Below are positions 6,348 to 17,801 of a DNA stretch of 64,000 bases, one piece after another. Origin of the DNA: Patescibacteria group bacterium (GTDB taxonomy: Bacteria > Patescibacteriota > Patescibacteriia > UBA9934); NCBI GenBank assembly GCA_049296775.1, contig JBAQTB010000003.1, positions 140,766-204,765 of the forward strand, read 5' to 3'. The notes beneath the pieces were generated by a model, which worked only from the letters and a program-made list of their open reading frames with translations, was not told the origin of the DNA and ran no database searches. The position numbers were made by a program, and so were the translations under genes. Numbering within the stretch: the stretch's first letter is position 1; every line of letters starts with the position of its first letter.

Positions 6348-6884
6348 ATGCCAACAGACACGCAAACAGCTGCTGACGTGGGTGGATCAACTCAAGCTGC
6401 AAATATTAATGGTTTGCCGGTGCAAACCTTGGCCATGGTGTTATTGGCGGTGTGGGCAGTGGTGTTAGTGTCTAGGCGATTTTTGCCAAAACCGATCAAA
6501 CGTTTGACGGACGATCAAGTCCAGCGCATTGAAGAAAGTTTACAGACCACACAAGCCTTGGAGAAAAGATTGCGCGAGATCGAAATTGAAAGAGCGGAGG
6601 TGATTAAACAGGCCAGGGTAGAAGCCCTGGAAATTCGGAAACAGGCTGAGGCTGACGCAGTTATTCGCAAACAGGAGATGTTGGACATGGCGCGTCAGGA
6701 GGTCGAAAAGGTGATTCAGTCGGGTAAATTACTCCTAGAGCAGGAGCGCACTGCGATGCTGATTGCTGTCCGCCGAGACTTGGTTGATATTGCGGTGAAG
6801 GCTTCCGCTAAAATTGTGACCGATGGTTTGACGGTGCAGCGATCCCAATCTTTAGCCGAAGAGATGGTGCGTAAACTGACCTAG
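6348..6884 (+). CDS. atpF: F-type ATPase F0 subunit b (stator stalk)
   Basis: One N-terminal TM helix then a long charged helix, 'RIEESLQTTQALEKRLREIEIERAEVIKQARVEALEIRKQAEADA...', co-linear with subunit b. Confidence 0.7.
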   Translation: MPTDTQTAADVGGSTQAANINGLPVQTLAMVLLAVWAVVLVSRRFLPKPIKRLTDDQVQRIEESLQTTQALEKRLREIEIERAEVIKQARVEALEIRKQAEADAVIRKQEMLDMARQEVEKVIQSGKLLLEQERTAMLIAVRRDLVDIAVKASAKIVTDGLTVQRSQSLAEEMVRKLT

Positions 6885-6886
6885 GT

Positions 6887-7276
6887 ATGTCTAAGGACTT
6901 TAAAGTGTTGGCCGACAAGATTGTTAAAGATACGGCTGACTATGCTGCGGCAGATTTGAAAGTGTACCTAGAGGGAGTGGTGGAGCACTTAGCTAGCCGC
7001 GGACAGTTGTTGGAGTGGCGGCAGCTTGAGAAAGAATTGCATGCGGCTTGGAAGCGCAAGCACGGTGCCGCTAAGCTCACGGTGGCCTCGGCGCATCCGT
7101 TGACTGAGACGGCGCTCAAGCATTTAGAAGCTTTGGCACCGGGAGCGGAGTTTGTGCAGGTAGTGGATGAGCGTTTGATGGCGGGTGCGATTGTACGCTT
7201 GGATGATTACCGATTAGACGGGACGGTACTGGGAGCGTTGACGCGGTTAAAGCAGCAATTACGTTATGGTAAATAA
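6887..7276 (+). CDS. atpH: F-type ATPase subunit delta (OSCP), short form
   Basis: C-terminus 'VVDERLMAGAIVRLDDYRLDGTVLGALTRLKQQL' matches the delta/OSCP C-terminal block (E. coli '..[25 protein letters not shown]..'); 129 aa. Confidence 0.7.
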   Translation: MSKDFKVLADKIVKDTADYAAADLKVYLEGVVEHLASRGQLLEWRQLEKELHAAWKRKHGAAKLTVASAHPLTETALKHLEALAPGAEFVQVVDERLMAGAIVRLDDYRLDGTVLGALTRLKQQLRYGK

Positions 7277-8066
7277 GCTAGACATCATCACAGCTTTGCG
7301 CGAACAGGTGCAAACCTTTAAGGCGCAAGCGCATGCCGAAAATGTCGGTACGGTTTTAACGGTGGTGGCTGGGGTGGTGACGTGTAGTGGTTTAGCTGGG
7401 GTGAAGCAATTTGAGGTGGTCGATTTTGGTCCGGGGTTAACTGGGCTCGTGGTTGGTTTAGCTGAGGAGTACGTCACGGTGGTGGTGCTGGGAACAGCAG
7501 ACGGTATTAAAGCAGGAGACACAGTGCGGCAGTCTGGGGCGGGGTTAAGTTTGCCGGTGTCAGAGTCCTTGTGGGGACGCGTTGTGAATGTGCTTGGGCA
7601 ACCGGTGGATGGTTTGGGGGAGATTCTTGCCGCACAGACCGAGCCAATTACTTTAAAGCCAGATTCAAGTTTGTCGTGCCAACGCTTGCAGGTTGAGAAG
7701 AGCTACGCTGCGGCTGAAGTTTTGCGGGTGGTGCAGGAGGGTAAGACGCAGGGGTTGAAGAGTGTGGTCGTGACCATTGGTGAACGCACGGCTAGTTTGG
7801 CGCAGTTGAAAGGAGCCTTAGAGGCGGCGGGTTGCTTGCAAGAGACTTTATTAGTCGTGGCTGGTGCTGCTGAGCCGGTAGCCTTGCGCTATTTGGCGCC
7901 GTTTAGCGCGGAAGCCGTGACGCGATATTTACTGCGGTTAGATGACAAGTTACAATTAGTTTTTGTGGATTTAGCTGCGCATACGCTGGTGAGTCAGAGT
8001 TGGCAGCAGTTGCTAGGCGCAGGAGCTGTTGAGCCCGTCACCTCCGCTCAGTTATTTTTGGATTAA
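7266..8066 (+). CDS. F1 alpha-subunit-like protein, truncated (266 aa), Walker A reduced to 'VVQEGKT', no C-terminal helical domain
   Basis: N-terminal beta-barrel region aligns with AtpA ('ENVGTVLTVVAGVVTCSGL...GRVVNVLGQPVDGLGEIL'); 'VVVTIGERTASL...LLVVAGAAEPVALRYLAPFSAEA' matches AtpA 'IYVAIGQKAST...[21 protein letters not shown]'; about 30 aa spanning the P-loop are missing. Confidence 0.7.
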   Translation: MVNKLDIITALREQVQTFKAQAHAENVGTVLTVVAGVVTCSGLAGVKQFEVVDFGPGLTGLVVGLAEEYVTVVVLGTADGIKAGDTVRQSGAGLSLPVSESLWGRVVNVLGQPVDGLGEILAAQTEPITLKPDSSLSCQRLQVEKSYAAAEVLRVVQEGKTQGLKSVVVTIGERTASLAQLKGALEAAGCLQETLLVVAGAAEPVALRYLAPFSAEAVTRYLLRLDDKLQLVFVDLAAHTLVSQSWQQLLGAGAVEPVTSAQLFLD

Positions 8067-8071
8067 ATTTT

Positions 8072-9190
8072 GTGGTCAAAAATTTTGTTGCCCAAGTTGG
8101 AGTTAATCAGGTCGATGTCCGGTGCCCGGCTGATGCGCCGTCTTTGTTGAGTGTCTTGGCGGTTAGTAATGGTGACCAGGAATTGCTGTTAGAGGTAGTC
8201 GCGTATTTAGGGGGAGGCTTGGTACGTACTTTGCCGCTCGGGTCGACGACTGGCTTACAGCGTGGGTTAGAGGTTAGATTTGTGAGTAAGAGTTTAAGCG
8301 TTCCGGTTGGTCATGAGCTGCTTGGCAGGCGTATTAATGCACTGGGAAAACCGTTAGACGGGATGGCACCAGTGCAGACTAAGCAATTTGCAGTGAGCCG
8401 TGGCGTGGCCCCAAAGTTAGCTGAGGTAGTTTCCCCGACTAAAATCTTTAGAACTGGAGTGGGTGTGATCGATTTACTCTTTCCGATTCCAGAGGGAGGT
8501 TTGGTCGCCTTGCAATCAAAAACAGGCGTCAGTGCATTGTTTACGCAAGTTTTGCGGGCGTCTGAGGCTAAGTGTGTTTACGTTCTAACCAATGCACGGT
8601 CTAAGCAGGTTGCAGAAGTCATGACGACCTTGGAGCAGGCCCAGGTGATTGCTAAGGCGGTGGTGGTGACGAGTGGCGTGGGTGAGGTGACGGCGCTACA
8701 TAATCAAGCCGTTGACACTGCCTTAACTGTGGCTGAGTCTTTGCGGTCAGTGGCCGGGGTGAGTTTGTGGCTTGATAGTGCAGCAGGTTTAAGCGCGGCC
8801 GCCATGGAGCGCATGGTGTCGACTGCGGCCGGGCCGCTCACGACTTTCTTGCTGGGTGCGCCGCTTGCGAGTTTGGCTACCGACGTGGTGACAGTTGTAC
8901 ATTTTGATGGGGAGTCTAGCGAGTTGGTTGATATCAAGTCTTCACATTCGCATTGGCTAACTGCCAAACAAGTGGGAGCTGAACATTTTGAGGTCGCCAA
9001 TCAGGTGCTGGAGATTTTACGCATGTCAGTCCAGATGAAGGTGGGGGAGAGAGCGCCTGATCCAGCGGTAATCGCTAAAGCTGACAGACTGTGGAGCTAC
9101 TTGCGCGAGTCTAGGGTCGAGATATCAGAGACTGAGGCTTATATTTCGCAGTTAGTGTCTAGGTGTAGAGCTGTTCTGGCTGGGGAGTAA
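8072..9190 (+). CDS. F1 beta-subunit-like protein, truncated (372 aa), catalytic P-loop replaced
   Basis: 'VRTLPLGSTTGLQRGLEV...VPVGHELLGRRINALGKPLDG' aligns with AtpD N-terminus; 'TGVGVIDLLFPIPEGGLVALQSKTGVSAL' aligns with AtpD '[30 protein letters not shown]' but GGAGVGKT is lost. Confidence 0.7.
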   Translation: MVKNFVAQVGVNQVDVRCPADAPSLLSVLAVSNGDQELLLEVVAYLGGGLVRTLPLGSTTGLQRGLEVRFVSKSLSVPVGHELLGRRINALGKPLDGMAPVQTKQFAVSRGVAPKLAEVVSPTKIFRTGVGVIDLLFPIPEGGLVALQSKTGVSALFTQVLRASEAKCVYVLTNARSKQVAEVMTTLEQAQVIAKAVVVTSGVGEVTALHNQAVDTALTVAESLRSVAGVSLWLDSAAGLSAAAMERMVSTAAGPLTTFLLGAPLASLATDVVTVVHFDGESSELVDIKSSHSHWLTAKQVGAEHFEVANQVLEILRMSVQMKVGERAPDPAVIAKADRLWSYLRESRVEISETEAYISQLVSRCRAVLAGE

Positions 9191-9191
9191 A

Positions 9192-9779
9192 GTGATTGCC
9201 AACTGGTGGCAAGCAGCGTATACTTTTGCCAATCAAAAAGTGTTGCGTATGGCTTGGTTGCGCCTGTTGAATCTGTTGTTCTTTGGCCCCAAAGTGACGG
9301 CGTCAAAGAAAAACTATACGGAGACTGAGGGGCGGGAGTTTGCTTTACTTGGAGCGGAGTTACGCGCCTTATTGGCGACTACTCGGTTTGGCAGATCATT
9401 GCGAATTCTCACTGTCTCGGGCGGGTCAAGTAATGCCGAAGAGAGTGAACTCCGAGCTTTAACTAACGCGTATTACGATATCGACCGTTTCGGGTTGAGC
9501 TTTGTGGCTTCTCCCCGGCACGCCGATATCTTATTTGTTACTGGGCCAGTCACGCGTAATTTTGCCGGTGTGCTGAAGGCGGTGTATGCCGCCGTGCCAC
9601 AACCGTGTTTGGTGGTGGCGATTGGGGATGGTGCGTGTACGGGTGGCATTTGGAAAGATTCGTATGCGGTGGTGGGTCCGGTGGCGGCGGTGATCCCGGT
9701 GAATTTGTGTATCCCGGGCGACCCACCTAACCCGACGCAAATTTTACGCGAGTTACTTGGCGCGTTGCGCTCTACCTAA
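9192..9779 (+). CDS. NuoB/HycG-like (hydrogenase small subunit/complex I 20 kDa family) with three of four N2-cluster cysteines replaced
   Basis: 'SPRHADILFVTGPVTRNFAGVLKAVYAAVPQPCLVVAIGDGACTGGIW...IPGDPPNP' aligns with NuoB '[21 protein letters not shown]...ISMGACANSGGMY...IPGCPPRPE'; the CC pair is 'SS', 'GCPP' is 'GDPP'. Confidence 0.7.
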   Translation: MIANWWQAAYTFANQKVLRMAWLRLLNLLFFGPKVTASKKNYTETEGREFALLGAELRALLATTRFGRSLRILTVSGGSSNAEESELRALTNAYYDIDRFGLSFVASPRHADILFVTGPVTRNFAGVLKAVYAAVPQPCLVVAIGDGACTGGIWKDSYAVVGPVAAVIPVNLCIPGDPPNPTQILRELLGALRST

Positions 9780-9784
9780 AATGT

Positions 9785-11803
9785 ATGTCAGGACAAGTGA
9801 TTGCAATTTGCTTGAGTATGTCAGTGCTGGCGTCTGTCATGGCGGCCGCAGCGAGTTTTTGGCCGAGCGGTAAATCGCATAAGCTGACTAGTTGGCTGTT
9901 GGCGGTGGGAGGAGTTTTGGGAGCGGTGGCGGGTTTGCAAATAATGTTGGGTGAGACGCAGACGGTGATGTTGCCGTATTCCTTGTACCCAGTGACAGCT
10001 GTGGATCCGGTCAGTACCTGGCCGTGGTTTTTTGACATGGTCTTTGGCCTAGATAGATTTTCCGCGATTTTTTATACTTTGATCTCGGTGGTGACCGCGA
10101 TGGTCATGGTGTACTCAGTTAAGTTTATCGAAATTAAACGTGAGGCGTATAACTTAAAACTGTACGGGTGCCTTGTGGCGTGTTTGGTGTTGGGTATGCA
10201 GGGGGTTTTACTGTCTACCAACATTTTCGGCTTCATTGGTTTTTGGGAATTAATGGTGTTCTGTATTTGGGGACTATTTTTAGTGACGGGGAGCGTGTCT
10301 GGACAGAGAGCTGGGTTTACCTATTTAGCCATTGCTCACCTGGGCACCGGAGCGATCCTGGCCGGTTTGTTTATTTTGTCTAACGGCGGCTTGCTGAATG
10401 ATTTTGTCACGATTAGCTCAGCAGCCGCAGACTTACCGATGCCGATTTTTGCTGTGGCCTGCGCGTTAATCTTGCTGGGGTTCGGGAGTCAATTAGGGGT
10501 AGTGCCGTTTCATGTGTGGCTGCCGCAATTACAGGTAGAGACGCCCACACCCGCCGCTGCCTTGATTACCGGAGCTGGGTTGGGTGTAGGGGTTTATGGG
10601 TTACTGAGGACGGTGATCTTTTTAGTCCCCACTGTACCTGGCTGGTTTGTGGGCTGTGTTTTGGGGTTTGGGATCTTGACGGCGCTTGTGGGGAGTTTAC
10701 ATGCGGTGGTCGATTTAGACGTAAAACAGACTTTGGGTTATTTTAGCTTAAAAAATGTCGGGTTGCTGTTAATTTTTATTGGCACGGGTTTATTGGCCGG
10801 TTTGCAGGGTAATGCCGAGTTAACGGAAACCGCCTTGTACGCCGGTTTATTTTTATGTTTAGCGCAAGGGGTGCTGCAGACTGCCATGGGGTTGGTGGCT
10901 GGGGTTGCTGAGGAAGCTTTTAAAACGCGAGAGTTAGATCTGATGGGTGGCTTGGCTCAATCTATGCCCAAACTATCTGTAGCGGCGTGCGTGATTGTTT
11001 TAGCAGCTGTAGGACTGCCGCCTTTTGCGCCGTTTATTGCAGAGTGGTCAGTGGTGCAGGCAGCGGTCGGGATTATGGCTACAGCTGAACCGGTGCTCGT
11101 GGTGTCATTGGTGGGTGTGGTAGTGGCGGTGACTTTTGTGACGGGGGTGAGTTTGATGGCGGGCGTTAAGTGGTACGCCGGGATTTTCTTGGCTAGACCA
11201 CGGCAAGTTGTAAGCACAGAGCTGAAAGAACTTGATGGCTATGTCTTAGGGCCAATTGCGGTGGCGGCAGTTTTGAGCGTGTTATTGGCGATGTTCGCCC
11301 CTAGGCTGTTGGCTAAAATGGGTGCCATCCATTTAGCGCCACCTAGTTTGCTGCATCCGGCTTTGGAGACAAGCGGGGGAGGATTAGCTCCGAGCCTGTT
11401 GACCTTAGTGATGGCTGGTGGCGTCTTGGCGCTGCTACTGTTACGGCAATTAATTGTGCGTTCGGGTTCTGTTCGGGTGGTGCCGGCGTGGGATCACGGG
11501 CAGGTGGTGGGTGCCAAAAATGAATATTCAATTACGGGTTTAACCGCGCCGTTTAGGTATTTTTTCCGATTCTTTTTACGGACTCAGAAAGTTGTGGACG
11601 TCCAGGCTGTGCAACTAACTAATCCGTGGGTGGTCACCAAGCACGTGACGTTGGTGGCGGTGCGCCAGTTGACTTACGTGCGGCTTGGTGAGGCTATCAC
11701 CAGGGTTGCTAGTTGTTTGGCGTATTTACAAAATGGCAGTGTCCAGTTTTACGTCTTGCTCATGATTGTGGCTTTGCTCATAACTATGGTGATCGCTTTA
11801 TGA
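9785..11803 (+). CDS. HyfB/NuoL-like antiporter-type membrane subunit (672 aa)
   Basis: Multi-TM protein with 'FHVWLPQLQVETPTPAAALITGAGLGVGVYGLL', a diverged 'WLPDAHxGPTPVSALIHAATMV' NuoL/M/N/HyfB signature; same length as E. coli HyfB. Confidence 0.75.
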   Translation: MSGQVIAICLSMSVLASVMAAAASFWPSGKSHKLTSWLLAVGGVLGAVAGLQIMLGETQTVMLPYSLYPVTAVDPVSTWPWFFDMVFGLDRFSAIFYTLISVVTAMVMVYSVKFIEIKREAYNLKLYGCLVACLVLGMQGVLLSTNIFGFIGFWELMVFCIWGLFLVTGSVSGQRAGFTYLAIAHLGTGAILAGLFILSNGGLLNDFVTISSAAADLPMPIFAVACALILLGFGSQLGVVPFHVWLPQLQVETPTPAAALITGAGLGVGVYGLLRTVIFLVPTVPGWFVGCVLGFGILTALVGSLHAVVDLDVKQTLGYFSLKNVGLLLIFIGTGLLAGLQGNAELTETALYAGLFLCLAQGVLQTAMGLVAGVAEEAFKTRELDLMGGLAQSMPKLSVAACVIVLAAVGLPPFAPFIAEWSVVQAAVGIMATAEPVLVVSLVGVVVAVTFVTGVSLMAGVKWYAGIFLARPRQVVSTELKELDGYVLGPIAVAAVLSVLLAMFAPRLLAKMGAIHLAPPSLLHPALETSGGGLAPSLLTLVMAGGVLALLLLRQLIVRSGSVRVVPAWDHGQVVGAKNEYSITGLTAPFRYFFRFFLRTQKVVDVQAVQLTNPWVVTKHVTLVAVRQLTYVRLGEAITRVASCLAYLQNGSVQFYVLLMIVALLITMVIAL

Positions 11804-12753
11804 GCCCAATTGTTTTAACGATTTTGCAAGTTTGTATGGCGTGCGCCTTGGCGCCGATGACCTTGGGGTTGGTAGCTTTTTTCAAGGCCAGGTTGTTGGG
11901 TAGACACGGTTTACCACCTTGGTCACCGTACTTCAATTATCGAACACTCCTCAAGAAAGAAACTTTGATTCCCGCCTCGGCGTCTTGGCTGTTTGTGGCT
12001 GCGCCCATCATGGTGTTGCTCAGTAGTGGGTTTTTGGTGATGGTGTTGCCGTTATTGACTACTAGCGGCGTGTTCAGCAGCTTATCTAATTTTCTAGTCA
12101 TTGCTGGCGTGCTGGCACTCGGGTCAGTCTTTGTGGTGTTAAGCGGTTTAGACACCGGGAACACGTACTCAGGTTTGGGGTCTAGCCGTCACTTAGTTAT
12201 GGTCGGTTTGTTGGAGCCGACAGTCATTTTAACTTTCGCGGCTTTGGCGTTGTCTACGGGGAGTGGAGAGATCGTCGGCATGCTTGAACATGCGGCGGTG
12301 ACGGGGCAATTGATTGGAACCGCGCCGTATCTGGCCTTGTCACTGCTAGCGTTGGTGCTGGTGTCATTAGCAGAAAATTCACGCTACCCAATTAGTGAGC
12401 CCGGCGCTGAGGCCACCTTAGCCATGGGTCAGGAGGTGACTACTTTTGATTACTCCGGCCCGTTACTGGCCATGCTGGAATACGCGGCCGCGTTGAAGCT
12501 GACAGTGTTTGCGTTGTTGGTAGCGAATTTCATTTTACCGCGGCCGTTACTGACAGATTATGCCGGGGTGGGTGATGTTATGTCTGTCGTCCTGGCCACT
12601 GTGTTGAAATTAATCCTCATGATGATTGCCTTGGCGATTTTAGAATCGTCAACGACTAAGATGAGATTTTACCGCGTTCAAGAGTTTTTGACCGGAGCCT
12701 TTTTCATGGCGTTGTGTGGGTTAGCTTTGGCACTTTTAATGCAACGTTTATGA
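11800..12753 (+). CDS. HyfC/HycD/NuoH-like membrane subunit
   Basis: 'FFKARLLGRHGLPPWSPYFNYRTLLKKE' resembles NuoH/HycD 'ERKxxAxMQxRxGPNxVGxxGLLQPxADxLKLLxKE'; ATG at 11800 overlaps the upstream stop (ATGA); the track ORF starts earlier at 11713. Confidence 0.65.
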   Translation: MSPIVLTILQVCMACALAPMTLGLVAFFKARLLGRHGLPPWSPYFNYRTLLKKETLIPASASWLFVAAPIMVLLSSGFLVMVLPLLTTSGVFSSLSNFLVIAGVLALGSVFVVLSGLDTGNTYSGLGSSRHLVMVGLLEPTVILTFAALALSTGSGEIVGMLEHAAVTGQLIGTAPYLALSLLALVLVSLAENSRYPISEPGAEATLAMGQEVTTFDYSGPLLAMLEYAAALKLTVFALLVANFILPRPLLTDYAGVGDVMSVVLATVLKLILMMIALAILESSTTKMRFYRVQEFLTGAFFMALCGLALALLMQRL

Positions 12754-13412
12754 TCTCTAATTTAACGACCCCTGATGCTGTCAGTATTGCGTGGTCAGTC
12801 ATGTTTTTAGTTGGCGCGTTTTTAGCGGGTGGCAAGTTTAGGCTAGGACAAATTCTCAGATATTACATCTTTCAATCTTTGTGTTTGGTGGGGCTAATGT
12901 TGAGCTTGGCTGAGGTAGCTGATTGGCACGCCTACCTAAGTGCCGCGAGCGTCTTAGTCTTTAGAGCGGTGTTAATGCCGGGACTGTTGATGCTGACTGC
13001 GAATCAATCAGGGGCTAGCGGTCGGTTGTTGTCATTTGTACGGCCAGCGCCTTCATATTTTGTGTCAGGGGTGGCGTTGCTAGCGGCGGTGTTGACCGGA
13101 ATTGCCATCACTCCGCATTTGCCGCAAGCAAATATCATGTTGGTGGTGACGGCCTTTGCTGGAATTTACATGGGCTTAGTCATGGCTGCCATTCGACGAG
13201 ATACTTATTCGCAAGTGATCGGCTTTTTGACCTTTGTGAACGGGATCACGATTTTGGCCGTGACTACGGTTGGCGGTTGGTCGATATTGGAGGAGCTGGG
13301 TATGTTTGTGACAGTGTTGTTGGCCGTATTGTTGTTTAGCTTGTTGTCCCGTAAGTTGAAAGAGCTGTACGCCGTGGAAGATACGGGCATTTTAAAGGAG
13401 TTAGTTGATTAG
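12750..13412 (+). CDS. HyfE-like small polytopic membrane subunit
   Basis: About 220 aa hydrophobic protein at the hyfE position between the NuoH-like and NuoM/N-like genes; ATGA start/stop overlap at 12750. Confidence 0.45.
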   Translation: MISNLTTPDAVSIAWSVMFLVGAFLAGGKFRLGQILRYYIFQSLCLVGLMLSLAEVADWHAYLSAASVLVFRAVLMPGLLMLTANQSGASGRLLSFVRPAPSYFVSGVALLAAVLTGIAITPHLPQANIMLVVTAFAGIYMGLVMAAIRRDTYSQVIGFLTFVNGITILAVTTVGGWSILEELGMFVTVLLAVLLFSLLSRKLKELYAVEDTGILKELVD

Positions 13413-13415
13413 CTT

Positions 13416-14894
13416 ATGTTGCCTGTCTTAATTGCAGTCGTCCTCATCTTAGCCACGGCGAGTGCGTACTTGCCGGTGGGGGAGCGCGTCATCAGGCGAT
13501 TAGGTTTAGCGTTGTCTTTAGTCAGTGTCGGTTTAGTGGGGGCAGCTGTGGTGGGTTGGTTTTTGGGAGTGGATCTAGGCGGTACGGGCCAGGCTTGGCA
13601 GTTGGATAATGTCACCGCTTGCGTGTTGGGATTGCTAGCGATAATTTCCGCTACGACTTCGGTAGTCGCACATCGTTACCTAGAGCAGGAGCTCAAAGAG
13701 AATTTACTTTCGATTACAGAAGTTAAGCATTACTACCGGTTGGTGCCGTTGTTTACGGCGGCTATGTATGTGGCGGTGTGGAGTAATAACGTGGCGGTGA
13801 TCTGGTTGTCCCTCGAGGCCACCACCTTAGCGACGACTTTACTGATTGCGTTTTACCGCAAACGATCAGCCTTGGAAGCGGCCTGGAAATACTTAGTGTT
13901 GAACGCCTTTGGCATGGGTCTCGCCTTAGTCGGTTTGATCTTGTTCGTGTTCGCGTTGACAGGGGGAGCGGACCACGGCACTCAGTTCATGACGAGCTTG
14001 CAGGAGTTGGCAGTGACTGAAGGCGTCAACATCGCACTCTTGCGTTGGGCGTTTGTCTTCTTGTTCATTGGCCTGGGGGCTAAGCTGGGCTTGGTACCCA
14101 TGCACGCCTGGTTACCAGATGCCCATAGCAAAGCGCCATCGCCGGTGTCTGCACTCATGGCAGGCTTGCTCTTGAATGTCGTTTTCATTACCTTGTTGCG
14201 CTTTAGACAGATCGTAGATTTAGCTTTGCTGGACCAGGGTCAGTGGAGCGGGCAATTCTTTTTAGTCTTTGGGTGTTTATCTCTGACTCTGCCTGCGTTA
14301 ATCATGTTGATTCAGAAGAACTACAAACGTTTTTTGTCTTACTCTAGCATTCAGGCCATGGGTGTCATGATGTTTGCAGTTGGTTTGGGTCCAGCGGGCC
14401 TCATCCCGGCGCTCATGTATTTACCTGGTCACGCCTTGCTGAAGAGTGGTTTGTTTTTTGGCGCGGGGGAGATTTTTAATACGTACAAAACTACGGCCTC
14501 TGAAGATATTCCTGATTTGTGGTATCTCTTACCCAAGACAGCGACGTTATTTTTGCTCTTAGCTGTGTGCTTGGTAGGTGTGCCGCCGTCTGCGATTTTT
14601 GTTAGCCAGACCTTGATGTTGGGGTTTGGGTTACGGGAACATTTGGCGATCACCTTATGGGCGACGGTCATGCTGACAGTGGCGGTTTTGACATTGAGCT
14701 ATCAGGTGTATCGTTTAGTCTTTAAATTACCGCTTAAAAAGGCGGAGGTACCCAGGGAGCCATGGAAGCTGGTGCATGTAGGTATGGGTTTGCATTTGCT
14801 GTTGGCGCTCGCCCTCGGACTGTGGTTCTTGACTCCAAGTGGCTTGAACTTCGTTTTAACTTTAGCTGAGGAGCTTAACTCTAACTTACTATGA
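13416..14894 (+). CDS. HyfF/NuoM/NuoN-like antiporter-type membrane subunit
   Basis: 'PMHAWLPDAHSKAPSPVSALMAGLLLNVVFITLLRF' is the canonical NuoL/M/N motif, with the conserved His of 'SALIHAATMV' replaced. Confidence 0.8.
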   Translation: MLPVLIAVVLILATASAYLPVGERVIRRLGLALSLVSVGLVGAAVVGWFLGVDLGGTGQAWQLDNVTACVLGLLAIISATTSVVAHRYLEQELKENLLSITEVKHYYRLVPLFTAAMYVAVWSNNVAVIWLSLEATTLATTLLIAFYRKRSALEAAWKYLVLNAFGMGLALVGLILFVFALTGGADHGTQFMTSLQELAVTEGVNIALLRWAFVFLFIGLGAKLGLVPMHAWLPDAHSKAPSPVSALMAGLLLNVVFITLLRFRQIVDLALLDQGQWSGQFFLVFGCLSLTLPALIMLIQKNYKRFLSYSSIQAMGVMMFAVGLGPAGLIPALMYLPGHALLKSGLFFGAGEIFNTYKTTASEDIPDLWYLLPKTATLFLLLAVCLVGVPPSAIFVSQTLMLGFGLREHLAITLWATVMLTVAVLTLSYQVYRLVFKLPLKKAEVPREPWKLVHVGMGLHLLLALALGLWFLTPSGLNFVLTLAEELNSNLL

Positions 14895-16501
14895 GTACTA
14901 AAGACTTCTTAGCGGATATTTTGGGGATCGTGGTAAGTGAGGAGCGGCCTGGCCAATTAACGGCAAGTGTAGCTAAGGACAAGTTTGCTGACGCAATTGA
15001 TGAACTTGTGAATGCGCGGGGTTTGGTAGCGGGAGTCGAGGCGGAGAGTCAGGAAGGGATGGCGGGAGTTGGTTTGGCGTTAGTGCACATGTTTGCCACG
15101 GATGAGCGGGGGGAGTCTGGGGGGTATGGCGTGCACGTTTTAATTCATGACGATACTGGGCATGCTTGGTTAATGTTGTCGACTAGAGTGTCTGCGGATG
15201 AGCCGAGTTTTCCGGCGGTGACTCCCAGGGTCATGGCAGCGTATTGGTATGAGCGCTACATTCATGACATGTTTGGGATTCGACCTGAGGGGCATCCGGA
15301 TTTGCGCCGCTTGGTGCATCATGAGCATATGCCAAATGAGACTTACCCGTTAAGAAAAGATTTTAAGTGGAACGCTGAGCTTGAGACCGCGGAGAATGCG
15401 TACCCACTCCAAGTTGCCACGGGTGCTGGGGTGTTTGAGCTGACCGTAGGGCCAGTACATGCCGGTGTGGCGGAAGCGGCGCAATTTTGTTTAAGCGTGG
15501 CGGGGGAGCGCGTGATTAGTCTGGACACCAAAGTCTTCTTTGCGCACAAGGGGCTAGAGAAGTTGTTGGAGGGGAAAGAGCCGCTTAGCGTTTTGCCGGT
15601 GATTGAGCGGATAGCGGGAGACGCTGCGCCGTCACATGCCTTGGCATTTTCACAAAGTCTAGAAGCGCTGGCAGACTGTGAGGTGACAGACAGAGCCAAG
15701 GGGCTCAGGACGCTTTTAAATGAGCTGGAACGCATCACACTTCACGTGCATGACCTTGCAGCCGTGGGGGAGGCTGGGACGGGCTACGCGGTCTTAGCGA
15801 GTCACGGGTTTAGGATCGAAGAACGTTTAAGACGTTTGTCTGATGAGCTGTTTGGAAATCGTTTTTGGCGTGGGGTGATTGTACCCGGGGGAGTAGTGCG
15901 GGATTTGAATGCGAATGAGCTCAAGAAAATTGCGATTACAGTGAACGAGGCGATTGAAGAATTGGAGGATTTGGTGAAGTTGGCGTTGAAGTCTGATGGT
16001 TTAAGAGATCAACTGGAGGAAAAGGGTATTTTAAAGCGCGAGGCCGCCTTGGTTTATGGTGCGGTGGGTGTGGTGGCCAGGGCTTCCGGCATCGACAGAG
16101 ATGTCAGACGCGATCATCCTTACGCCGCTTATGACCGCTTTGTGCCGACGATTTCGATTAAGACCAGCGGGGACGTCTATGCCCGACTTCGTCAGCGGGT
16201 TGATGAACTGCTAGAAAGTCAGCGTTTGCTCCAAGAATTGTGTAAGTCTCCCGGCGAGGGGCGATTTTTTGTGAAATGTCAGCCCAAGGATGGGCGAGCT
16301 TGGAGTGCTGTAGAAGGTGGCAGGGGTGAAACTGTGCACGTTATTAGTATCAAGGCCGGGCTGATTGATCGTTACACCATCCGTGGCCCATCCTTTTGCA
16401 ATTGGCCGCTCTTAGCCGAGCTCATGCCAGACAATACTTTATCCGATTTCCCTTTGTGCCTGAGCTCAATGAGTTTGAGTGCTGCTGATTGCGATCTTTA
16501 G
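14891..16501 (+). CDS. Fused NuoC-NuoD / HyfG/HycE-like large subunit lacking the NiFe-ligating cysteines
   Basis: NuoC-like 'ERYIHDMFGIRPEGHPDLRRL'; NuoD/large-subunit-like 'ELTVGPVHAGVAEAAQF'; the N-terminal 'RxCGxCxxxH' site reads 'ERIAGDAAPSHALA' and the C-terminal 'DPCxxCxxH' site reads 'SAADCDL'. Confidence 0.75.
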   Translation: MSTKDFLADILGIVVSEERPGQLTASVAKDKFADAIDELVNARGLVAGVEAESQEGMAGVGLALVHMFATDERGESGGYGVHVLIHDDTGHAWLMLSTRVSADEPSFPAVTPRVMAAYWYERYIHDMFGIRPEGHPDLRRLVHHEHMPNETYPLRKDFKWNAELETAENAYPLQVATGAGVFELTVGPVHAGVAEAAQFCLSVAGERVISLDTKVFFAHKGLEKLLEGKEPLSVLPVIERIAGDAAPSHALAFSQSLEALADCEVTDRAKGLRTLLNELERITLHVHDLAAVGEAGTGYAVLASHGFRIEERLRRLSDELFGNRFWRGVIVPGGVVRDLNANELKKIAITVNEAIEELEDLVKLALKSDGLRDQLEEKGILKREAALVYGAVGVVARASGIDRDVRRDHPYAAYDRFVPTISIKTSGDVYARLRQRVDELLESQRLLQELCKSPGEGRFFVKCQPKDGRAWSAVEGGRGETVHVISIKAGLIDRYTIRGPSFCNWPLLAELMPDNTLSDFPLCLSSMSLSAADCDL

Positions 16502-17024: not shown

Positions 17025-17801
17025 ATGGCGACTGATCGCGCTGAAACATTGTTGACAGAGGGGCGGGTGTGGCTACCGGTGGCGGGTTTACAGGAGGTAT
17101 TGACCGAGGTGCTACGTCGGTTTTCTGACGATGTCTTGGCTAATATCGACTGGGATGACCTCAGAGCAGGTAAATACACCTTCTGGTGTCAGGAGCCGCA
17201 GGAGCAGGGCACTGACGAGCCGGATGATGGACTGATCTACAAGTGCGCAACCGACAAGAGTGATCCTTCCATTGCTCGAACCGGCAAGCGACCAGATCAC
17301 AAAGTGTATATGCAGTGGCGTTGGCGTACTGAACGCTTACTGCGGTCTCGACCAAGTCTGTATAAGCTCGAGTTCAAGGTCTTCTTTGAGATCATGGCTG
17401 AGCTTCAAGAGTTGTTAACTCCGCATATCGACAAGATGTGGCGAGAGCTCCAACTCTTGCGGCCTGAGCTGCAGGGCTTTGAGGTCGATCAGGAGCTGAG
17501 TAGCATACGCGTGATGAGGTACTTGGGAGTCCGGGACGATGAGTCGAGCCTTATCGGTAAGACGCACACGGATCGTGGAGCGTTTACTTGCCACCTGGGC
17601 GACAGTGCTCCGGGGCTAGTAGTTCAGAACTCCAAGGGCGAGTTTGAGTTGGTGCCAACAACTCCTGAACAAACGCTGATTTTTACAGGTGATGCTTTGG
17701 CACGCCTCACGGATCGCCCGGCAGTGGTGCACGGTGCGGCGGCAGGCGCAGATGCGAAGAGGTCGATAGTGGTGGCGTTTGTGTGGATTAAGGCTAAGTA
17801 G
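17025..17801 (+). CDS. 2-oxoglutarate/Fe(II)-dependent oxygenase superfamily protein
   Basis: 'GKTHTDRGAFTCHLGDSAPGLVVQN...GEFELVPTTPEQTLIFTGDALARLT...AVVHGAA' fits the HxD...H 2OG-FeII_Oxy core (HTD...GGLQV...W..V.P..G.LVVN.GD). Confidence 0.55.
   Translation: MATDRAETLLTEGRVWLPVAGLQEVLTEVLRRFSDDVLANIDWDDLRAGKYTFWCQEPQEQGTDEPDDGLIYKCATDKSDPSIARTGKRPDHKVYMQWRWRTERLLRSRPSLYKLEFKVFFEIMAELQELLTPHIDKMWRELQLLRPELQGFEVDQELSSIRVMRYLGVRDDESSLIGKTHTDRGAFTCHLGDSAPGLVVQNSKGEFELVPTTPEQTLIFTGDALARLTDRPAVVHGAAAGADAKRSIVVAFVWIKAK

Follow-up and report, generated by a model that had tools for sequence, protein, structure and literature searches.

An open reading frame on the forward strand of the 64-kb stretch of Patescibacteria DNA that was analysed (here called the window) raises the question of what a NuoB-type small subunit does when the ligands of its iron-sulfur cluster are gone. 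The reading that we favour with moderate confidence, on the strength of comparative sequence analysis, is that this ORF is the ehrS gene of the CPR Ehr clade of ultra-small Patescibacteria, Ehr standing for energy-converting-hydrogenase-related (Ech-hydrogenase-related), and that its product is a cofactor-free structural or coupling subunit of a redox-inactive, ion-translocating complex. Ehr was reportedly defined by Marreiros et al. in 2013.

The ORF is intact and comprises 195 aa when counted from the GTG at 9192, which is preceded by a Shine-Dalgarno-like GGGGAG (9181-9186); family consensus and NCBI place the start at the ATG at 9249, which gives an ehrS product of 176 aa. A preliminary description had recognized a homologue of NuoB and of hydrogenase small subunits, and this assignment is borne out by Pfam PF01058 Oxidored_q6 (E=4.7e-21; 75.3 bits, above the gathering threshold of 27) and by PDB matches to MbhJ (6cfw_J, 3e-25), HycG (7z0s_G, 1.4e-20), NDUFS7 (~2e-19) and E. 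coli NuoB (2.8e-13). The SPRHAD, GDGACTGG and IPGDPP motifs are found in EhrS as quoted there. The AF2 model (pLDDT 88.3) has NDUFS7, HycG and MbhJ as its top Foldseek matches, with a TM of at most 0.83, which points to a flavodoxin-like NuoB fold. NCBIfam NuoB models remain below their cut-offs (NF005012, 98.6 against 116; TIGR01957, 90.6 against 142.7), and an Rfam scan of the whole window gave no match. The closest solved structure is MbhJ of Pyrococcus furiosus (41% identity; Foldseek rmsd of 1.5 A over 127 columns), which holds its [4Fe-4S] cluster via CxxC...C...C, whereas EhrS has S/E/G/D in those columns. With NuoB/PSST/Nqo6 of complex I, EhrS shares the fold and the SPRxxD/IPGxPP framework, but not the N2 ligands. 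The gene and its former ligand columns, placed by alignment with MbhJ/HycG, are as follows, Cys149 having been placed by comparison with canonical four-Cys (CCCC) relatives:

9192-9779, + strand: ehrS, NuoB/HycG-type small subunit without Fe-S ligands (ORF, Pfam, PDB matches, AF2/Foldseek)
9429-9431, + strand: Ser80, equivalent of ligand Cys1
9438-9440, + strand: Glu83, equivalent of ligand Cys2
9630-9632, + strand: Gly147, equivalent of ligand Cys3
9636-9638, + strand: Cys149, non-ligand position, +2 from the Cys3 column
9720-9722, + strand: Asp177, equivalent of ligand Cys4

None of the four ligands of the proximal/N2 [4Fe-4S] cluster is left in EhrS. The preliminary description was right that ligands had been lost, and that an Asp (Asp177) replaces the cysteine of IPGCPP, but its count of three losses out of four has to be raised to four, since the Cys of GDGACTGG that it took for a surviving ligand is Cys149, two residues beyond the ligand column, which holds Gly147. 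Its pairing of two adjacent serines with the CC pair of complex I does not stand either: the nearest relatives are of the group-4-hydrogenase type and carry CxxC, so that the ligand equivalents are Ser80 and Glu83. Because all four columns are substituted, the conclusion that EhrS cannot ligate a conventional [4Fe-4S] cluster of the N2 type stands, and more firmly than first claimed. EhrS contains three Cys in total (139, 149 and 173). Cys149 and Cys173 are close to ligand columns three and four, yet neither replaces a ligand. The possibility that the ligands are present but shifted was rejected: canonical four-Cys proteins, which read GDC-A-C/R-xGG in the Cys3 region, often have a second, non-ligand Cys at +2 (VGDCACSGG, VGACGCSGG), and Cys149 corresponds to this common extra Cys, while Cys173 is private to the window sequence and absent from the homologues compared.

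A search for orthologues with intact ligands, which would have pointed to decay in this lineage only, found none among 120 close homologues from Patescibacteria; CCCC occurs only in distant non-CPR Ehr. The homologues display the pattern T/S-E-G-D, with Thr (96) or Ser (17) in the first column of 113/120, Glu in the second and Gly in the third column of 120/120, and Asp in the fourth of 117/120. Since the E/G/D substitutions are shared by close homologues, the ligand loss is, by this survey, an old and conserved feature of the clade and not decay private to the window gene, and lineage-specific decay was rejected as the cause of the Cys loss because these substitutions are found in 120/120 homologues. 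An NJ tree unites the CPR sequences in a single clade, all of whose EhrS are Cys-less. Cys149 is invariant among 87 close homologues, and its position is occupied by Ile in more distant members of the xEGx type (P0121, P0123, P0145). Independent Cys-less lineages place two to three carboxylates over the four positions (xEGD; TCDD/DCDD/DADD; DxDN) and converge on Asp/Glu/Asn, not on Cys/His.

The window cluster has the order ehrS-A-B-C-D-L, by which the six-subunit Ehr composition is complete. The neighbours of ehrS are only L-, H-, K-, M- and CD-like genes, with no Nuo operon, and overlaps of the ATGA type join ehrA to ehrB, ehrB to ehrC and ehrD to ehrL. The partner genes and the residues discussed below are:

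9785-11803, + strand: ehrA, HyfB/NuoL-like antiporter-type subunit (Pfam Proton_antipo_M; MbhH alignment)
10490-10492, + strand: EhrA TM7 Lys replaced by Gln236, lost in the window genome only (family survey)
10583-10585, + strand: EhrA TM8 Lys replaced by Gly267, lost in the window genome only (family survey)
10877-10879, + strand: EhrA TM12 Lys replaced by Gln365, lost in the window genome only (family survey)
11800-12753, + strand: ehrB, HycD/NuoH-like subunit (Pfam NADHdh; HycD 1.6e-19)
12750-13412, + strand: ehrC, HyfE/NuoK-like small membrane subunit (NCBIfam hydrogenase-4 membrane subunit, weak and below cut-off)
13416-14894, + strand: ehrD, HyfF/NuoM-like antiporter-type subunit (family survey)
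14891-16501, + strand: ehrL, HycE/NuoCD-like large subunit without NiFe Cys (Pfam Complex1_49kDa/30kDa; HycE 1.4e-59)
15608-15637, + strand: EhrL L1, RIAGDAAPSH (motif survey)
16472-16498, + strand: EhrL L2, SLSAADCDL (motif survey)

Orthologues of ehrC match PF00420 weakly, and the top NCBIfam models for the window Ehr subunits (HyfB/HyfF/HyfE) all score far below their curated cut-offs. The best sequence match for every Ehr subunit lies in E. coli formate hydrogenlyase/hydrogenase 4, from which Ehr differs by the lack of the NiFe site and the proximal cluster, of the HycB/HycF/HyfA/HyfH ferredoxin subunits and of the formate dehydrogenase partner. The NiFe motifs of group 4 [NiFe]-hydrogenases (L1 RxCGxCxxxH and L2 DPCxxCxxR/H) are not present in the window EhrL, and in EhrL of all 85 related loci SGD and NLSYSG are found where the CxxC motifs would be. 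Neither a ferredoxin-like 2x[4Fe-4S] subunit (HycF/HyfH/MbhN/EchF) nor NuoE/F/G-like electron-input subunits were found in the window or in the relatives' loci, and no ORF with CxxCxxCxxxC exists anywhere within the 64-kb window.

What the family keeps lies in the membrane arm and in the cap. Cys-less and CCCC clades alike carry the EhrB loop AENARYPVDNPATHLELTMVHEAM almost unchanged (family consensus AENARxPVDNPATHLELTMVHEAMxLEYSG), antiporter-type residues are found in nearly all loci (EKHKHK in EhrA, EKHNHK in EhrD), and the EhrL motifs R[IVL]SGD...H and NLSYSGxDL are closely conformed to in all 84 loci other than the window. Geobacter sulfurreducens EhrA-D, L and S and the proteobacterial loci L022-L083 share the six subunit types with CPR Ehr, and likewise have an EhrL without NiFe Cys but with SGD and NLSYSG-type motifs, the near-invariant EhrB loop, the antiporter-type residues and no ferredoxin-like subunit. 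They differ in the small subunit, which is CCCC in 100% of ~50 proteobacterial, Omnitrophota and Bacillota loci, whereas the CPR clade has no ligand Cys, and in gene order, which is A-B-C-D-L-S in these three groups and S-A-B-C-D-L in the CPR clade.

A monophyletic CPR Ehr clade has been described from large-subunit phylogeny, its members lacking metal-binding Cys and being judged incapable of interaction with H2 (Jaffe et al. 2020, BMC Biol; PMC7304191). The window Ehr belongs to this clade as an eroded member; our NJ tree of large subunits agrees, placing the window EhrL as sister to locus L005 inside the CPR clade. As far as the text of that paper is searchable, it is silent on the missing Fe-S ligands of the small subunit and on linkage to ATP synthase (PMC7304191), and the literature search found no paper on small-subunit Fe-S ligand loss or atp-ehr linkage in CPR.

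Directly upstream of ehrS the window carries remnants of an ATP synthase operon:

6348-6884, + strand: atpF (b), apparently intact (Pfam)
6887-7276, + strand: atpH (delta), apparently intact (Pfam)
7266-8066, + strand: degenerate F1 alpha, 266 aa, without Walker A and with the C-terminal half missing
8072-9190, + strand: degenerate F1 beta, 372 aa, truncated and with Walker A deleted

No genes for the a, c, gamma and epsilon subunits are present in the window. The atpF and atpH products show 49% and 54% identity to their L005 orthologues, and the beta remnant is an orphan whose next best match is only 31% identical. An assembly artefact was rejected for the truncated beta, as the identical protein is recorded from an independent Logan assembly. 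In 20/40 CPR loci of the xEGx type, an F1Fo ATP synthase operon that is complete immediately precedes the Ehr cluster. F1 genes are found directly upstream in 3/10 xCDD-like and 0/5 DxDN loci; in contrast to this frequent adjacency in the CPR clade, it occurs in 0/32 of the non-CPR CCCC loci. That the atp genes are not adjacent in half of the CPR loci counts against coupling to ATP synthase. The protein encoded between atpC and ehrS in the relatives has no Pfam match. A Na+-ATP synthase as partner is unsupported: the relatives' c subunits lack what we take to be the Gln/Ser Na+ signature and, set against reference c-subunit sequences that we assume to be representative, look H+-type, so that a role in Na+/H+ conversion is not specifically supported.

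In the reading that we favour, EhrS and EhrL would cap EhrB, with EhrS devoid of a cofactor and serving a structural or coupling role, and, where the cluster once sat, the two conserved carboxylates would either keep its negative charge or bind a cation. CPR Ehr would carry out no redox chemistry and act instead as a translocator of ions (H+ or another cation), which may be driven by, or feed, the gradient of the ATP synthase in hosts without a respiratory chain. The working analogy is with the Mrp-type cation/H+ antiporters, which are redox-independent and have MrpA/MrpD-type subunits with a Glu/Lys chain as in Ehr; Ehr differs from them by the absence of MrpB/E/F/G homologues and by its NuoH-like subunit and hydrophilic NuoB/NuoCD-like cap. 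Compared with the MrpA-G set, the window has only MrpA/D-like and NuoK-like proteins, and the NCBIfam Mrp scores are far below cut-off. The strong conservation of polar residues at the former metal sites of EhrL and EhrS hints that these sites still bind or sense something, and is not accounted for by a purely structural role.

The window copy itself departs from this picture. Its EhrA reads EQHGQQ where the family has EKHKHK, three Lys and one His being gone; the EhrB coupling-loop motif (12370-12459) reads AENSRYPISEPGAEATLAMGQEVTTFDYSG and has diverged from the family-invariant sequence; and L1 and L2 of EhrL depart from the Ehr-family motifs in a lineage-specific manner. Since EhrA no longer has its pump residues and the loop of EhrB is likewise lost, this copy may not translocate ions. 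Of the substitutions at positions where five outgroups are invariant, 184 are unique to the window and 16 to its sister locus L005, compared with 15 and 11 for the neighbouring control gene TatD; each Ehr subunit has a 2.3-3.7-fold substitution excess in the window lineage and TatD has none. Genome-wide fast evolution behind the long branch was rejected, since the adjacent TatD, a single control gene, is not accelerated. EhrS of the window shows seven deviations at conserved columns, the highest number among the 120 homologues (median 1). This excess and this rank, together with the losses in EhrA, EhrB and EhrL and the crippled or deleted ATP synthase genes, would fit an ehrS that is, with the whole window cluster, a functionless relic nearing pseudogene, the loss of Cys being mere decay. 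We nevertheless regard such a relic as unlikely: the Cys substitutions are conserved clade-wide and hence older than the erosion of the window, none of the ten ORFs in the atp-ehr unit is broken and three pairs of ehr genes are joined by ATGA-type overlaps, neutral accumulation of the excess substitutions would be expected to yield ~13 stop codons and none was observed, and EhrD retains EKHNHK with all its key residues, including TM5 Glu, TM7 Lys and TM12 Lys. By this count of stop codons the atp-ehr unit is still under selection for translation. The hallmarks of catalysis and pumping are gone from it though its ORFs are kept, so that the copy is probably non-pumping, relaxed or repurposed. 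The argument for co-decay of atp and ehr is weakened by locus L107, which is also deviant yet has normal-looking atp genes.

The acidic former cluster site might also sense cations or protons (e.g. Mg2+, Ca2+, Fe2+ or pH) and thereby gate the membrane arm, in which case EhrS would be no passive cap. An invariant Glu83 and a near-invariant Asp177, the recurrence of carboxylates in each independent Cys-less lineage and the extreme conservation of the EhrB coupling loop facing the site are consistent with this; CCCC-type Ehr, however, do not differ in EhrB loop or EhrL motifs although their cluster is still in place, so that the core function may be indifferent to the chemistry of the site, and we hold a sensor to be distinctly improbable. 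More speculative, and given little credence here, is the proposal that CPR Ehr is a redox-free complex-I-type module of F1Fo, docked or obligatorily coupled, in which ion movement in the membrane arm would be driven or gated via the acidic, cofactor-less EhrS/EhrL cap and the former cluster site would mimic the charge of a reduced cluster; b, delta, the dead alpha and beta and the non-pumping Ehr of the window would then be what is left of a supercomplex, now serving a structural purpose outside energy conversion. That EhrS still holds an Fe-S cluster or another redox metal via Cys149, Glu83, Asp177 and Ser80 (in the window perhaps also Cys173), the complex remaining an oxidoreductase, is very hard to credit: Asp- or Glu-ligated clusters do occur in other proteins, and the invariance of Cys149 in close homologues and the conserved Glu/Asp/Gly argue for a site under selection, but there is a single conserved Cys near the site, replaced by Ile in the distant xEGx members, Cys173 is restricted to the window, EhrL lacks NiFe ligands, input subunits are missing from the window and its relatives, and the independent Cys-less lineages did not turn to Cys or His.

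The cofactor-free reading bears on how these genes are named. Patescibacteria ehr genes are routinely annotated as 'formate hydrogenlyase', 'Ni,Fe-hydrogenase III small subunit' or 'NADH dehydrogenase/complex I subunits', which invites wrong inferences of hydrogen or respiratory metabolism for Patescibacteria, while the ligand survey shows a CPR complex without NiFe site, proximal Fe-S site or ferredoxin subunit. The window represents a lineage where ATP synthase and Ehr lose functional residues together. For the family, the frequent joining of the cluster to the atp operon suggests a part in the management of ion gradients, in hosts that have no electron transport chain, and CPR Ehr, in which the coupling loop of NuoH type and the lysine chain of the antiporter-type subunits are kept and the redox cofactor is absent, may serve as a natural test case for how a complex-I-like membrane arm is driven and for the role of Ehr complexes.

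The ehrS gene opens a translationally coupled six-gene cluster, with ATGA overlaps at the ehrA-ehrB, ehrB-ehrC and ehrD-ehrL junctions:

9192-9779, forward strand: ehrS, intact ORF, 195 aa from GTG, resembles NuoB/HycG
9785-11803, forward strand: ehrA, resembles HyfB/NuoL
11800-12753, forward strand: ehrB, resembles HycD/NuoH
12750-13412, forward strand: ehrC, resembles HyfE/NuoK
13416-14894, forward strand: ehrD, resembles HyfF/NuoM
14891-16501, forward strand: ehrL, resembles HycE/NuoCD

The GTG codon of ehrS is located 1 base past the stop of the preceding gene, 3' of a GGGGAG site; the start used in homologues and in the NCBI record of this protein (P0001, 'MAG: formate hydrogenlyase [Patescibacteria group bacterium]') is Met20 (ATG 9249). 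The NuoB/hydrogenase-small-subunit homology proposed in the preliminary description is real, being borne out by Pfam Oxidored_q6 (E=4.7e-21, 75 bits, cut-off 27), by solved structures (MbhJ of the P. furiosus membrane-bound hydrogenase, 3e-25; E. coli HycG, 1.4e-20; mitochondrial NDUFS7, ~2e-19; E. coli NuoB, 2.8e-13), and by an AlphaFold model (pLDDT 88.3, 87 homologues as input) that superposes on MbhJ with an rmsd of 1.5 Å over 127 columns.

EhrL aligns best with HycE (1.4e-59), of which RVCGICGFAH is changed to RIAGDAAPSH and DPCYSCTDR to SLSAADCDL, and therefore has no NiFe ligands. The six-gene composition and the absent NiFe site thus assign the cluster to the Ehr type (energy-converting, or Ech-, hydrogenase-related), whose subunits carry the Geobacter names EhrA-D, L and S. 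NCBIfam matches (NuoB, HyfB, HyfF, HyfE, NuoD, NuoH) are all far under the curated cut-offs, and no ORF of at least 40 aa in the whole 64-kb window contains the ferredoxin motif CxxCxxCxxxC. Jaffe et al. 2020 (PMC7304191) described the CPR large subunits as monophyletic inside Ehr and as lacking metal-binding cysteines, and judged that they 'likely cannot interact with H2'. Directly 3' of ehrL lies a 2OG-Fe(II)-oxygenase-like gene (17025-17801), as in the sister locus L005 and in L086.

The four ligand columns of EhrS were mapped with HMMER (ungapped, against MbhJ, HycG and NDUFS7) and with a MAFFT alignment:

9429-9431, forward strand: Ser80, Cys1 column
9438-9440, forward strand: Glu83, Cys2 column
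9630-9632, forward strand: Gly147, Cys3 column
9720-9722, forward strand: Asp177, Cys4 column

The earlier reading aligned the N-terminal SS with the complex-I 'CC', but closer relatives have CxxC, which makes Glu83, instead of the second Ser, the equivalent of the second ligand. Replacement of the IPGCPP cysteine by Asp stands. The cysteine of GDGACTGG (Cys149), which had been taken for a surviving ligand, is offset by two residues from the Cys3 column. In this stretch the closest canonical relatives have VGDCARDGG, VGDCACSGG or VGACGCSGG, with the ligand Cys in place and often a second Cys exactly at +2; Cys149 is the counterpart of this extra residue. None of the four cluster ligands is therefore left in EhrS, in agreement with the earlier claim that a [4Fe-4S] cluster cannot be ligated conventionally.

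Among the best 120 homologues from 5.8 billion proteins (56-72% identity; named members are Moran-, Falkow- and Uhrbacteria of the Patescibacteria), the Cys1 column holds Thr (96), Ser (17), Asn (3), Cys (3) or Ala (1), Cys2 is Glu and Cys3 Gly in all 120, and Cys4 is Asp (117), Asn (2) or Ser (1). When 1.84 billion cluster representatives were searched exhaustively, about 93 of the best 150 matches (40-60% identity) were canonical CCCC; the remainder belong to Cys-less types, either x-E-G-D or one of several patterns rich in Asp. Since they are common to the closest homologues and recur as Cys-less types in the wider set, the substitutions are, on this comparative evidence, an old conserved clade trait; decay private to the window gene, for which intact orthologues had been the proposed sign, is ruled out.

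The small-subunit ligand pattern follows the clade across 160 related loci, which were drawn from metagenomes and species-representative genomes and annotated with profiles from the closest relative:

Proteobacteria, Omnitrophota, Bacillota: order A-B-C-D-L-S, EhrS CCCC
Parcubacteria-type CPR: order S-A-B-C-D-L, EhrS [TSNC]-E-G-[DN]
Levy-/Magasanik-/Kaiserbacteria-type: S first, ehrC not always detected, EhrS T/D-C-D-D
Methanosarcina, Methanosarcinales, Dehalococcoidales: order A-B-D-L-S, EhrS D-x-D-N

The NiFe cysteines are absent from every large subunit surveyed (R[IVT]SGD...; NLSYSGxDL). A rough EhrL NJ tree unites all CPR sequences in one clade and puts the Cys-less archaeal/Dehalococcoidales group amid CCCC forms, which suggests that the cluster was lost independently at least twice. 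Each independent Cys-less lineage has 2-3 carboxylates at the four ligand positions. The antiporter residues of EhrA (E-K-H-K-H-K; partial losses in L087, L107, L125 and L130) and EhrD (E-K-H-N-H-K) are kept in nearly all loci, whatever the clade, and in nearly all of them the EhrB homologue of the NuoH TM5-6 coupling loop hardly varies (AENARYPVDNPATHLELTMVHEAMxLEYSG); the machinery by which complex-I-type enzymes link the hydrophilic cap with ion translocation is thus conserved with or without the cluster.

Several variants were observed. D-[TP]-D-N forms occur in L016 (Methanosarcina sp. Mfa9, NZ_CP195119.1), L020, L018, L013, L021 and L033. Many TEGD-type loci (L001 12539-14131; L094, L112-L114, L118, L138) have EhrB and EhrC joined in a single ORF of ~530-580 aa that matches NADHdh and, weakly, Oxidored_q2. 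Bacillota/Acetobacterium CCCC EhrS with two CxxCxxCxxxCP motifs (L058 9611-10453; L085 9638-10441) carry a predicted fused 2x[4Fe-4S] ferredoxin domain and so stand at the other end of the range from the CPR form, which has no cluster. CPR-type ehr in MAGs labelled Gammaproteobacteria, Bdellovibrionales and Nitrosomonadaceae (L006, L010, L015, P0014) probably reflects mis-binned contigs and not real occurrence beyond Patescibacteria.

Falkowbacteria, Uhrbacteria and the closest relative (72% identity) carry a full F1Fo operon (I, a, c, b, delta, alpha, gamma, beta, epsilon) directly 5' of ehr. Loci with 2 kb or more of sequence upstream were counted: F1 genes immediately precede ehr in 20 of 40 xEGx-type and 3 of 10 xCDD-type loci (named by their ligand-column residues), and in none of the 5 DxDN or 32 CCCC loci. 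The c subunits of atp-linked relatives look H+-coupled, because the Na+-binding Gln/Ser signature of reference sequences is absent. Several CPR loci encode a conserved soluble protein of 211-267 aa without Pfam match between atpC and ehrS (L005 9052-9789; L003 9192-9827; also L086, L089, L091, L093, L131), which is absent from the window.

The CPR Ehr family thus combines a NuoB-fold EhrS without cluster ligand, an EhrL without NiFe ligand and no electron-input subunit with retained pump residues and coupling loop, often beside an atp operon. We propose, by analogy with Mrp-type cation/H+ antiport, that CPR Ehr is a redox-inactive ion translocator, which would work on the gradient that ATP synthase builds or consumes in cells lacking a respiratory chain. 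EhrB would be capped, with no cofactor involved, by EhrS together with EhrL, and the conserved Glu/Asp at the old ligand sites might either maintain the negative charge that the [Fe4S4(Cys)4] centre had before its loss or hold a cation. A regulatory role of the old cluster site, in sensing cations or pH, would be compatible with these sequences.

The window shares the synteny of its closest relatives (CvpA, TatD, atp, ehr, 2OG-oxygenase-like gene), and its copy is eroded. The atp part (6348-9190) consists of only four genes, all in frame: b and delta are apparently intact (49% and 54% identity to L005), alpha (266 aa) has neither Walker A nor the C-terminal half, and beta (372 aa) is likewise without Walker A and has several segments missing. 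No genes for a, c, gamma or epsilon occur in this unit, where relatives have complete operons. No close relative of the beta remnant turned up in the database (next match 31% identity), and the truncated alpha/beta pair is confined to the window among atp-linked loci. Erosion also reaches functional hot spots of the Ehr genes. EhrA reads E-Q-H-G-Q-Q, having lost one His and all three channel Lys:

10490-10492, forward strand: EhrA TM7 Lys to Gln
10583-10585, forward strand: EhrA TM8 Lys to Gly
10877-10879, forward strand: EhrA TM12 Lys to Gln

Ion translocation via EhrA is therefore probably lost in this copy. The EhrB loop (12370-12459) is strongly diverged (AENSRYPISEPGAEATLAMGQEVTTFDYSG); L107 is a second locus with a deviant loop, and its atp genes look normal. 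The EhrL motifs differ from those of all 84 other loci, and of the 87 EhrS columns conserved to 95% or more, 7 deviate in the window, the highest number in any of 120 homologues (median 1). Across the six subunits, unique changes at sites invariant in five outgroups number 184 in the window vs 16 in L005, and three-taxon relative-rate tests give a 2.3-3.7-fold excess in each Ehr subunit (p<0.001), vs 15 to 11 (p=0.43) for the adjacent TatD. Such erosion agrees with pure pseudogenisation of the ehr unit, which we nevertheless consider improbable: all ten atp-ehr ORFs are open, although ~13 stops would be expected under neutrality from ~220 excess amino acid replacements and a stop-creating share of 5.8% of non-synonymous changes, and clade-wide ligand substitutions would be left unexplained. 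The atp-ehr unit is, on this evidence, relaxed or repurposed and not a plain pseudogene. A non-canonical Fe-S or metal redox centre in EhrS is unlikely, as only one Cys is conserved, this Cys is missing in distant members, and partner sites are lacking.

Ehr complexes and the CPR Ehr clade were already known; in the searchable literature we found no description of complete small-subunit ligand loss with conserved replacements, of atp-ehr operon linkage, or of atp/ehr co-erosion as in the window. The ehr genes of CPR should not be taken as evidence of hydrogenase or complex I activity in Patescibacteria.
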